64,000 nucleotides of DNA from Escherichia coli (GTDB lineage: Bacteria; Pseudomonadota; Gammaproteobacteria; Enterobacterales; Enterobacteriaceae). Below are positions 26,561 to 29,516 of the stretch, one piece after another. A model generated the notes under the pieces. That model did no database searches, was not told the origin of the DNA, and worked only from the letters and a program-made list of their open reading frames with translations. Where the stretch lies: NCBI RefSeq assembly GCF_002854065.1, contig NZ_CP024147.1. One strand, written 5' to 3'. The first letter of the stretch is position 1. Every line of letters starts with the position of its first letter. The position numbers and the translations under genes were made by a program.

Positions 26561-27517
26561 TCACATCGCCGCTTCATTTTTCGCCCGTAGCTTCTTCGCC
26601 TGGCTTTCCAGCAACAGGTAACAGATCAGCGCCAGCAGCAGCGGGATAAAGTAATACAGCACACGGTAAGCGAGCAGGGCGGCGATAATTGTGCCTTTGG
26701 ATGTATGCTCCCCTGCCAGTAATGCGATAAATACCGCTTCCAGCACACCAATCCCCGCCGGAATATGCACGATGACGCCTGCAATACTACTAACCAGCAA
26801 CACGCCCAGTACAAAGAAATAGTTAACGCTTTGACCAAGTAACAGCCAGATTATCGCTCCCATTACCATCCAGTTAACGCTGGAAATCAGCATCTGGGCG
26901 AGGGCGAATTTCCACGAAGGCAGCACCAGCTTTTGCCCTTTAATGGTCATATGGCGGTGTTTCGCAAAAGCGCAAAACCACAAATAAACCGCGATAATCA
27001 TCAGTAAGCCAATGCCGAGAATGCGCAGCGTGGTTTGATCGACATACCAGTGATCCGGTAGCTCCACCACGCCTGCGGTAAAGATAATCCCCGCCAGCAA
27101 AATATAGCCCAGCCAGTTGGTGGTAATACTGAGCGAGAAAATCCGCGTAATAGTGCTACCGGGCAACCCCAGACGAGAGTACAAACGATAGCGCATACCA
27201 ATGCCGCCGACCCAGGTACTGAGTGTCAGGTTGAAGGCGTAGCAGATAAACGACACCAGCATCACCTGGCGCTTCGCCAGTTTGTGACCGCAGTAGAAAC
27301 GGGCGAGCAGGTCATAGCAGCCGTAAATCAGATAGCTGACGACCACCAGCCCGACCGCACTAAGCAGCGCAACGCGATTGTAGTCGCGGATGACCTTCCA
27401 GACCTCTTCCCAGTCCACTTTTTTGGCGTAGACCACCAGCAACACAATCACCGCGATAAAAAACAGCCAGGTGAGGATCTTCTTTGCTAAGCGCCAGCGC
27501 GGGTGTGATTTACTCAT
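26561..27517 (-). CDS. ybhN: Inner membrane protein (lysylphosphatidylglycerol-synthase TM-region family)
   Basis: 318 aa polytopic; last gene of ybhP-clsB-ybhN. Confidence 0.9.
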   Translation of the reverse strand: MSKSHPRWRLAKKILTWLFFIAVIVLLVVYAKKVDWEEVWKVIRDYNRVALLSAVGLVVVSYLIYGCYDLLARFYCGHKLAKRQVMLVSFICYAFNLTLSTWVGGIGMRYRLYSRLGLPGSTITRIFSLSITTNWLGYILLAGIIFTAGVVELPDHWYVDQTTLRILGIGLLMIIAVYLWFCAFAKHRHMTIKGQKLVLPSWKFALAQMLISSVNWMVMGAIIWLLLGQSVNYFFVLGVLLVSSIAGVIVHIPAGIGVLEAVFIALLAGEHTSKGTIIAALLAYRVLYYFIPLLLALICYLLLESQAKKLRAKNEAAM

Positions 27518-28758
27518 CAGGGTTTTACCCCCGTGTTTTCAGTTTCTACCCGATCCTGCGTTTCCATTGTCGGTTGTGCGGGGGGATCAACCTGCGCCAG
27601 ACGTGGCGTGTGTGCCGGAAGCCAGCCAACCAGCGCCGGGAAGTGGCGTAAAAAGTGGAACGCCAGCACGCTTTTGGTCAGGTTCCACCAGGTGCGTTTC
27701 GGCAGCATGGTCTCATCGACCTGCTGACAATCTGCGGCAATAATGCCGTTCAGATTATCGCGCAGCGTCTGGTTAAAATGACGATCGTGGATGATGACAT
27801 TAGCTTCGAGATTCAGTGACAAACTGAGCGGATCGAGATTACTGGACCCTACTGTCGCCCAGTGATCGTCCATCAATGCCACTTTGCCGTGGAGCGGGCG
27901 GCGGCGGTACTCAAATACCTGAACGCCGCCTTTAACCAGATAGTTATACAGCAAGCGCGCACCGACTCTGACAATCGGCATATCCGGTTCGCCCTGAATT
28001 ATCAGTTTGATCCGCACCCCGCGCCGTGCCGCTTTACGCAAGGCGTGTAAAAATCGATAGCCGGGGAAGAAGTAGGCGTTGGCGATAATGACTTCTCGCC
28101 GCGCCTGAGTGAGCATTTTCAGATAGTGACGTTCAATATCATCGCGATGTTCTTCGTTATCGCGCCAGACCAGCAATACCTGCGCTTCTCCCGGCTGGCG
28201 GTTCTCTTCCGCTTTGTGATGACGTCGCCACCAGCGTCGTGCCGCGCTCTGTCCAGGCAGGTTTTCCAGCTCAAACTGGAGAATATCTTCGACAATCGGC
28301 CCTTCAAGGCGTACCGCGTAATCCTGTTTAGCCTCTGGACCGTAGCTGGACATATGCTCGGCGGAGTAATTCAGCCCGCCAATAAAGGCTATACGCGCGT
28401 CGATCACCACAATTTTGCGATGCATCCGGCGAAACACATTGGTGCGCATACCAAAAAGGCGAGGGCGGGGATCGTAGTAGCGGAACACTACGCCAGCTGC
28501 CGTCAGTTCATTGACAAACTCATCGCTGAGATCCGGCGAACCGTAGCCATCCAGCAAGACTTCCGCTTTAACCCCGCGTTGCGCTGCTGCCAGTAGTGCC
28601 GCATGCAGTTGTTTGCCGACGTCATCCTCAAACCAGATAAACGTTTCAAGAATGATGCGTTCTTGTGCCTCGCCAATCGCCTTAAACACCGCGGGATAAT
28701 ATTGCTCGCCGTTTTCCAGCAACTGGATCTTATTGCCTTCGCGCCAGCTACATTTCAT
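27517..28758 (-). CDS. clsB: Cardiolipin synthase B (phospholipase D family)
   Basis: 413 aa; two HxK-type PLD motifs ([16 protein letters not shown]). Confidence 0.93.
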
Positions 28759-29516
28759 AAATGAATCTCCGCACTTAAAGGGGCATGATCAGAAAGGTGT
28801 CGCCATGTCCGCAGCGGCAACGCGGTTGGCGCGCTGGCGCTGGCATTTTTGACGTAGATCCTGTCCAGTCGTAGTAGAGGAAATTGCACCGGAAACGTGC
28901 GCGCCGGGCGTCCGTGGGCGCGGGTAAAAATCTCATCCAGTCCGGCCTGCACTTTTAACGGATGATTAGCTTTTTGCCGCCAGTCATTGAAATCACCCGC
29001 CACCAATACCGGTTCGCCGTCCGGTAGCTCATTCACCCATTCGGCGAGCATCGCAAGCTGCGCCTGACGGTGCGCCTCACGCAGGCCCAGATGTACGCAC
29101 ATCACATGAATCGCTTTTCCGGTCATCGGCGGCACAATGCGGCAGTAGAGCACGCCGCGCTTTTCCGCACCATCGACCGAAACATCGCGATTCTCATAAT
29201 GTTCAATGGGATAACGCGACAGTACGGCGTTGCCGTGATGCCCTTCCGGGTATACGGCATTGCGACCGTAGGCAAAATCGCTCCACATAGTGTCGGCGAG
29301 AAACTCGTAGTGCGAGGTATCGGGCCAGTTTTCCACATGCAGCGGATGAACTTCGTGTGCGCCCATCACTTCCTGCAGGCAAACAATATCGGCGCTGACG
29401 GTACGCACGGCATCGCGAAGTTCCGGCAAAATGAAGCGTCGGTTAAACGCGGTAAAGCCTTTGTGAATATTGATGGTGAGCACCTTGAACGAAAATTGTT
29501 GTGTTTGATCGGGCAT
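28755..29516 (-). CDS. ybhP: Endonuclease/exonuclease/phosphatase family protein
   Basis: 253 aa; recognised YbhP; overlaps clsB start. Confidence 0.9.

Follow-up and report, generated by a model that had tools for sequence, protein, structure and literature searches.

Why do enterobacteria keep three cardiolipin synthases, what is the physiological product of one of them, ClsB, and what are the job and the substrate of YbhP, the protein encoded beside it? These remaining questions come together in the ybhP-clsB-ybhN locus of Escherichia coli, which lies at positions 26561-29516 on the minus strand of a 64,000-nucleotide stretch of contig NZ_CP024147.1 (assembly GCF_002854065.1), hereafter the window. 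The model that we favour, with moderate confidence in it as a whole, is that the three proteins may form a module that makes, edits and flips lipids for the stress-phase membrane. What is new here is the conserved gene order over many genomes, the adjacency of distant YbhP relatives to PLD genes, two intact fusions of the two enzymes, and the invariance of YbhP's catalytic residues.

The locus and its three proteins

The open reading frame (ORF) list and the raw sequence of the window give three consecutive genes on the minus strand, in the order ybhP, clsB and ybhN. The first, ybhP (28755-29516), encodes 253 amino acids (aa), predicted to be a cytosolic Mg-dependent phosphoesterase of the endonuclease/exonuclease/phosphatase (EEP) fold. 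The second, clsB (27517-28758), encodes cardiolipin synthase B, a PLD-type transphosphatidylase of 413 aa without a transmembrane helix. The third, ybhN (pplT; 26561-27517), encodes a polytopic inner-membrane protein of 318 aa, a homologue of the flippase/scramblase domain at the N-terminal end of MprF. The clsB ATG (28758-28756) and the ybhP TGA (28757-28755) share the four nucleotides (nt) of ATGA at 28755-28758, where the minus strand reads GGAGATTCATTT-ATGA-AATGT. The clsB stop (27519-27517) and the ybhN ATG (27517-27515) share one, position 27517, within TGATG at 27515-27519, where the minus strand reads GGGGGTAAAACCC-TGATG-AGT. An earlier note, made from the sequence alone, had placed these three genes and described start/stop overlaps of 4 bp and 1 bp; its coordinates proved exact to the base, and both overlaps were read directly from the sequence.

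It is essentially certain that this is the known E. coli operon ybhP-clsB-ybhN. All three proteins are identical to those of K-12 MG1655 (b0788-b0790), and the nucleotide differences from K-12 (2 in ybhP, 12 in clsB and 28 in ybhN, 42 in total) are all synonymous, which shows purifying selection on each of the genes; the 156-nt upstream region that was compared shows no difference. The locus was found in 5423 of 5426 complete E. coli genomes, in which RefSeq names the genes ybhN, clsB and ybhP and the flanks ybhM and ybhQ. Identity to the K-12 proteins, purely synonymous change and near-universal presence together mark these as real genes and not chance ORFs. Overlaps are also found at moaC/moaD, ybhF/ybhS and ybhG/ybhF, and with such junctions routine in this neighbourhood, those of the ybhP operon, though real, are nothing unusual. 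Both the locus and the structure of the operon have already been described; they are conserved but ordinary, and their annotation is of textbook level. Segment 26400-29700 reaches at least 99% identity in only 27 of the 5423 E. coli genomes, and 100% in two of them, from a Gambian human stool isolate and a wastewater isolate. With so few close matches, the source strain lies slightly outside the most-sequenced E. coli lineages, despite its K-12-identical proteins.

The families assigned in the earlier note, namely EEP, PLD with two HxK motifs and a polytopic membrane protein, are upheld by Pfam and NCBIfam scores, by motifs and by hydrophobic segments. ClsB scores 751.2 bits against the NCBIfam equivalog NF008427 (cutoff 281), with residues 1-408 of 409 covered, and matches Pfam PLDc_2 twice. 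A regular-expression match finds two complete HxK(x)4D(x)6G(G/S)xN motifs, at residues 113 and 290. The first (residues 113-130) is encoded at 28369-28422 on the minus strand, its codons checked against the sequence; the second (residues 290-307), at 27838-27891 on the same strand, includes H290, the residue mutated to inactivate Salmonella ClsB, whose H290A allele is catalytically inert (PMC9241728). ClsB has no hydrophobic segment (maximum KD19 = 1.16) and, as it lacks a membrane helix, most likely works on the cytoplasmic side of the inner membrane.

The reported activities of ClsB are the formation of cardiolipin from two molecules of phosphatidylglycerol (PG), and of PG from phosphatidylethanolamine (PE) and glycerol (PMC8027125 for PG from PE). 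In Salmonella, the "whole clsB operon", ybhP-clsB-ybhN, was cloned, and with it a triple cls mutant regained cardiolipin and made it in excess (PMC9241728). Salmonella 6-phosphatidyltrehalose and 6,6'-diphosphatidyltrehalose require ClsB, and among E. coli strains the production of trehalose phospholipids varies even where the clsB genes are identical (PMC6446866).

YbhN scores 56.9 bits against Pfam PF03706, LPG_synthase_TM (cutoff 33.4), over residues 21-295, and has about 8-9 hydrophobic segments. It aligns to residues 40-342 of Pseudomonas aeruginosa MprF (9goe), which are the translocase domain, with an E-value of 3e-22, and also to the MprF structures 9j8q, 7f47 and 6lvf. Against the bifunctional MprF model, NCBIfam NF033480, it reaches 164 bits, below the cutoff of 600; the match covers just positions 3-301 of the 841 in the model, and YbhN stops at residue 318, without a synthase domain. 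YbhN thus corresponds to the MprF translocase domain standing by itself, and flipping or scrambling is its proposed role, on the strength of the literature and homology. Hauser et al. renamed it PplT and proposed that it is an MprF-type translocase; they reported that in Escherichia, Shigella, Klebsiella and Pantoea its gene accompanies those of YbhP and ClsB, that the protein binds ClsB and PgpA/B/C in two-hybrid assays, and that deleting pplT in CFT073 causes a growth and competition defect (bioRxiv 10.1101/2022.03.11.483950). P. aeruginosa MprF is a promiscuous scramblase. In K-12, an H-NS-repressed antisense transcript is reported opposite ybhN (it would correspond to the plus strand within 26561-27517 of the window), ended Rho-dependently by the RNA-polymerase-binding aptamer iRAP#2751 (PMC6847712).

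The earlier note had called the roles of both genes flanking clsB undefined. This no longer holds for YbhN, given the published translocase proposal and its binding to ClsB, and it stands for YbhP, for which no published function was found in the literature searched. YbhP scores 83 bits against Pfam PF03372, Exo_endo_phos (cutoff 24.5), shows the alpha/beta sandwich typical of EEP proteins, and has no membrane-spanning segment. Against the YafD-like EEP equivalogs it stays below the cutoffs (NF003842, 42.3 bits vs 144; NF003840, 30.3 vs 163) and matches only the C-terminal part of the models, which places it outside those subfamilies. A sequence search against solved structures gave only a marginal match of YbhP to ExoIII (E 0.006), and none for ClsB.

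Gene order, fusions and the proposed module

Conservation of the operon was followed in a synteny scan anchored on YbhP, with one genome per species, over Enterobacterales, Pseudomonadales, Cellvibrionales, Xanthomonadales and Burkholderiales. The scan gave 80 loci, four of them too short to judge, so that 76 could be evaluated. YbhP, ClsB and YbhN are directly consecutive on the same strand in 58 of these 76 gamma- and betaproteobacterial loci. When the start codon nearest to the E. coli N-terminus is taken as the strict junction call, YbhP and ClsB overlap in 32 of the 58 loci (30 of them by 4 nt), and ClsB and YbhN overlap by 4 or 1 nt in 28. When any open in-frame start at the upstream stop is allowed, an overlap is possible at 51 and 38 of the 58 junctions, respectively, and, the loci being phylogenetically related, none of these counts represents independent events.

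Among eight distinct loci with YbhP homologues at 36-41% identity, four have an adjacent PLD gene, and the arrangements differ: EEP then PLD, overlapping; an inositol-monophosphatase-family gene, then PLD, then EEP; a VTT/DedA gene overlapping the EEP gene, with the PLD gene convergent; and a fused EEP-PLD protein. Two such fusions, P0220 (648 aa) and P0271 (645 aa), have 42% identity between them, and because both keep every EEP catalytic residue and both HKD motifs, they are maintained proteins and not assembly errors. Two distant EEP-PLD clusters (L084 3411-6050; L003 3180-7268) have a VTT/DedA-domain protein in place of YbhN, as if one putative scramblase had been exchanged for a non-homologous one. 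Scrambling has been proposed for DedA proteins, which in certain fusions take the place of the MprF membrane domain (PMC11980842).

A search of 1.8 billion representative proteins gave 4417 relatives of YbhP, and 70 of them, at 35-62% identity, were aligned to measure conservation. N16, D175, D218 and D243 are invariant in these 70 homologues, and H18, E49, H94, N177 and H244 are at least 90% conserved; the metal-binding and catalytic set of the EEP fold (N, E, D-x-N, D, D-H) is complete in the YbhP of the window. With residues so nearly invariant, the family is almost certainly catalytic.

The model that we propose would work as follows. One stress-responsive promoter upstream of ybhP would drive all three genes. 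On the cytoplasmic side of the inner membrane, ClsB would swap the head groups of PG or PE, and YbhN would move the products to the periplasmic leaflet. YbhP would be a catalytically competent Mg-dependent phosphoesterase sitting physically beside ClsB on the same lipid, where it would either trim a phosphorylated or otherwise extended head group, or cleave the substrate or the product of ClsB. The overlapping stop and start codons would fix the proportions of the three proteins through termination-reinitiation. The part given to YbhP is where we infer most: gene linkage, fusion proteins and residue conservation are what it rests on. That YbhP may act on the lipids of ClsB, as synteny, the intact EEP-PLD fusions and the exchange of YbhN for DedA/VTT proteins suggest, is best taken as a testable lead.

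Translational coupling is plausible, and would be consistent with the conserved overlaps. Shine-Dalgarno-like sequences stand before both internal starts on the minus strand: GGAG at 28767-28770, inside ybhP and 8 nt before the clsB ATG, and GGGGG at 27528-27532, inside clsB and 10 nt before the ybhN ATG. The two junctions were folded as RNA to look for masking of the start site until the upstream gene is translated, and neither fold is significant. At the ybhP/clsB junction there is less structure than in shuffled controls (z +1.9), and the clsB/ybhN junction forms a small hairpin in which GGGGG pairs with CCCUG just before the start codon (z -0.8).

Several points weigh against the make, edit and flip model. 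ClsB alone complements the loss of trehalose phospholipids (PMC6446866), and the literature reports it active in vitro without YbhP, so YbhP is not strictly required for ClsB catalysis. Deletion of pplT (ybhN) left the lipid pattern unchanged by thin-layer chromatography (bioRxiv 10.1101/2022.03.11.483950). In the synteny scan, 18 of the 76 YbhP-family loci are without both ClsB and YbhN, and form a second, mostly Pseudomonas lineage. The nearest characterised structural neighbours of YbhP include the nucleic-acid enzymes TDP2, nocturnin and CCR4 together with neutral sphingomyelinase, and with neighbours so mixed a lipid substrate cannot be read from the fold. Since clsB and ybhN have Shine-Dalgarno-like sequences of their own and the junction folds are not significant, coupling is not required. 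A single-chain AlphaFold2 model of YbhP joined to ClsB by a GS linker reached a predicted template-modelling score of 0.69; it came without predicted aligned error, the alignment used misplaces the last 18 residues of YbhP homologues, and the model was not used as evidence.

Some of these points would be expected if the genes had no specific joint function, with YbhN a general bulk-phospholipid scramblase, ClsB a minor redundant cardiolipin synthase and the overlaps ordinary compaction. On that explanation it would be no surprise that losing ybhN alters growth and not the lipid pattern, that YbhN binds PgpA/B/C too, that MprF translocase domains are promiscuous, that overlapping junctions are common in neighbouring operons, or that the junction RNA structures lack significance. 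We nevertheless consider it unlikely: the three-gene order persists in 58 of 76 loci over a large evolutionary distance with overlaps retained, YbhN-family genes recur beside cytosolic lipid head-group enzymes, for example in gpgSDF, and the distant EEP-PLD clusters exchange YbhN for another putative scramblase family, VTT/DedA.

The invariant or nearly invariant EEP catalytic set in the 70 homologues, kept in the fusions as well, speaks for a catalytic function and against a solely structural one. This makes it distinctly improbable that YbhP is an accessory factor which raises the level or activity of ClsB without acting on lipid, like YmdB for ClsC, and YmdB and YbhP have unrelated folds. 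The parallel does have a basis, as in E. coli each of the two stationary-phase cardiolipin synthase genes comes after one that encodes a soluble protein of hydrolase fold, and clones with ymdB yield more ClsC (PMC8027125). ClsB can, moreover, function without YbhP, and the ATGA overlap would tie its translation to that of YbhP. It is highly doubtful, with the PLD linkage and fusions on one side and the nucleic-acid enzymes among the structural neighbours on the other, that YbhP belongs with the nucleic-acid enzymes, be it as a nuclease, a nucleotide phosphatase or an end-processing phosphodiesterase like TDP2, and is co-transcribed with clsB only as another stationary-phase gene, with a substrate and a pathway of its own.

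The make, edit and flip model can be taken one step further, tentatively, to a proposal that we regard as possible and no stronger. YbhP may be the founding member of an EEP class in bacteria, phosphoesterases of lipid head groups that are complexed with ClsB-type PLDs, and fused to them in some uncultured bacteria. The operon would then carry out phosphatidyl transfer to an unusual acceptor, head-group trimming and flipping, and it would yield a non-canonical stress lipid, the trehalose phospholipids being an example, which YbhN or a DedA/VTT partner would export to the outer leaflet. The trehalose phospholipids that depend on ClsB activate the innate immune receptor Mincle. If it were true that YbhP or YbhN controls their synthesis or surface exposure, this would explain the differences between strains despite identical clsB genes (PMC6446866).

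Other arrangements were seen around the relatives of these genes. In the second lineage (L049-L082, e.g. L055 4096-6732), a PIG-L-family deacetylase gene lies just upstream of YbhP in 13 of about 20 loci, many of which also have a GT2 glycosyltransferase gene nearby, and an autotransporter beta-domain gene lies downstream; from this context, the YbhP enzyme family may serve a further pathway, for head groups or glycolipids. At L085 (1947-4753) and L086, an inositol-monophosphatase-family gene, a PLD gene and a YbhP-like EEP gene follow one another on one strand, with junctions that overlap or nearly abut, and two phosphoesterases around one PLD suggest a phosphorylated polyol head group in that lineage. 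The DedA gene of L084 overlaps its EEP gene by 4 nt. A Cellvibrio metagenome assembly (L053 6001-11296) has YbhP-ClsB-YbhN followed by a second ClsB-YbhN pair, and a Ramlibacter metagenome assembly (L051 8105-9987) has two tandem copies of YbhN. P0276 (413 aa) joins an N-terminal NUDIX domain to a YbhP-like EEP domain. Two further candidate fusions were rejected: P0272 (710 aa, EEP-PLD) is missing the SDH motif, carries D218Q and has an out-of-frame-looking linker, is 54-56% identical to separate proteobacterial genes and is probably a frameshift product, and P0033 lies on a short contig and is uncertain.

Transcription, control region and neighbourhood

The interpretation in the earlier note is supported in part, and published work had largely anticipated it. 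Its single lipid-related operon finds support in a published single unit, co-induction, a promoter scan and the conserved gene order, while the translational coupling and joint function that it drew from the overlaps are at most plausible. ybhP-clsB-ybhN has been treated as one transcription unit (PMC9241728, PMC10100675, bioRxiv 10.1101/2022.03.11.483950), which is regulated by ppGpp and induced by fluoride (PMC10100675). A LolCDE inhibitor induces ybhP 17.6-fold, clsB 12.3-fold and ybhN 4.4-fold, a gradient from 5' to 3' (PMC5105897), and ybhPO is strongly RpoS-dependent (PMC2907692). A consensus scan of 26300-29800 for promoters and terminators returned counts at chance level, with no excess of promoter-like sites that would indicate internal promoters; the scan is uninformative except in showing no obvious internal promoter. 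The genes thus share one strand, have no obvious internal promoter or terminator and are co-expressed according to the literature, as expected of a single operon.

The intergenic region between ybhP and the divergent ybhQ is conserved across the Enterobacteriaceae almost like coding sequence. CTACACT, at 29552-29558 on the minus strand and 36-42 nt upstream of the ybhP ATG, varies little or not at all in this family; it is a candidate sigma-S-type -10 element, and as the -10 of the operon promoter it would be consistent with the RpoS dependence. A perfect 8+2+8 palindrome, TTACGGAA-TT-TTCCGTAA, lies at 29583-29600 in the divergent control region, with its centre about 40 bp upstream of the candidate -10. 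It too is conserved in the Enterobacteriaceae and is probably a regulator binding site. Its core, GAAnATTCC, loosely resembles an RcsAB box, a likeness that serves as a lead only. The strong induction of ybhP under the Rcs-activating Lol inhibitor is set beside that likeness in the same spirit.

A sigma-E-like promoter, GGAATTT-N17-TCTGA, lies at 29587-29615 on the plus strand and points towards ybhQ. In Salmonella, a sigma-E peak from chromatin immunoprecipitation (ChIP) between ybhP and ybhQ was assigned to ybhP (PMC4577112). ChIP is blind to strand, and the sigma-E-like motif in the window faces ybhQ, the other gene. A sigma-E promoter for ybhP was not adopted, as the good motif faces ybhQ and, on the ybhP strand, GAACTT has no convincing -10 behind it.

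ybhQ (29649-30059, plus strand) and ybhR (30021-31127, minus strand) are convergent, and their 3' ends overlap by 39 nt. The lipid operon is adjoined by ybhL and ybhM (24823-26525), tandem paralogous genes for membrane proteins of the Bax-inhibitor-1/YccA family; the longest ybhL ORF (261 aa) reaches 27 codons upstream of the annotated start. Rfam models identify a Moco riboswitch upstream of moaA (21932-22076, plus strand, 103 bits) and naRNA4, a nucleoid-associated non-coding RNA (44677-44747, minus strand, 78 bits).

Comparison with known systems

The closest system is the clsB operon of K-12 and Salmonella (b0790-b0788). It has the same proteins, order, overlaps and upstream region, K-12 being the genome compared, and is the same locus in another strain. 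The known lipid phosphoesterases of the EEP fold, the neutral sphingomyelinases and inositol polyphosphate 5-phosphatases, are only 14-23% identical to YbhP, and nucleic-acid EEP enzymes score equally.

Within E. coli the nearest parallel is ymdB-clsC, in which the gene for a stationary-phase PLD-type cardiolipin synthase also directly follows a gene for a soluble protein with a hydrolase fold, and in which YmdB enhances ClsC. YmdB is, however, a macrodomain protein and not an EEP protein, and ymdB-clsC has no YbhN-type gene downstream. YmdB boosts ClsC, whereas an effect of YbhP on ClsB has no report.

MprF offers a likeness in the pairing of a head-group enzyme at the cytoplasmic face with a membrane domain of this type, YbhN being homologous to its N-terminal translocase domain. 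The two differ in that YbhN has no synthase domain and has a separate PLD-type protein as its partner, and E. coli makes no aminoacyl-PG.

The ybhP operon can also be likened to gpgSDF, which makes glucosaminyl-PG (GlcN-PG) in P. aeruginosa, and to hexSDF of Clostridioides difficile. In those operons the synthase gene comes first, the soluble enzymes are a glycosyltransferase and a deacetylase instead of a PLD and an EEP phosphoesterase, and the editing step has been demonstrated, whereas for the ybhP operon we infer it. The likeness lies in the plan: in gpgSDF and hexSDF two soluble cytosolic head-group enzymes build and then modify the head group of a phospholipid or glycolipid, and they are followed by a predicted flippase of the YbhN/AglD2 family (COG0392).

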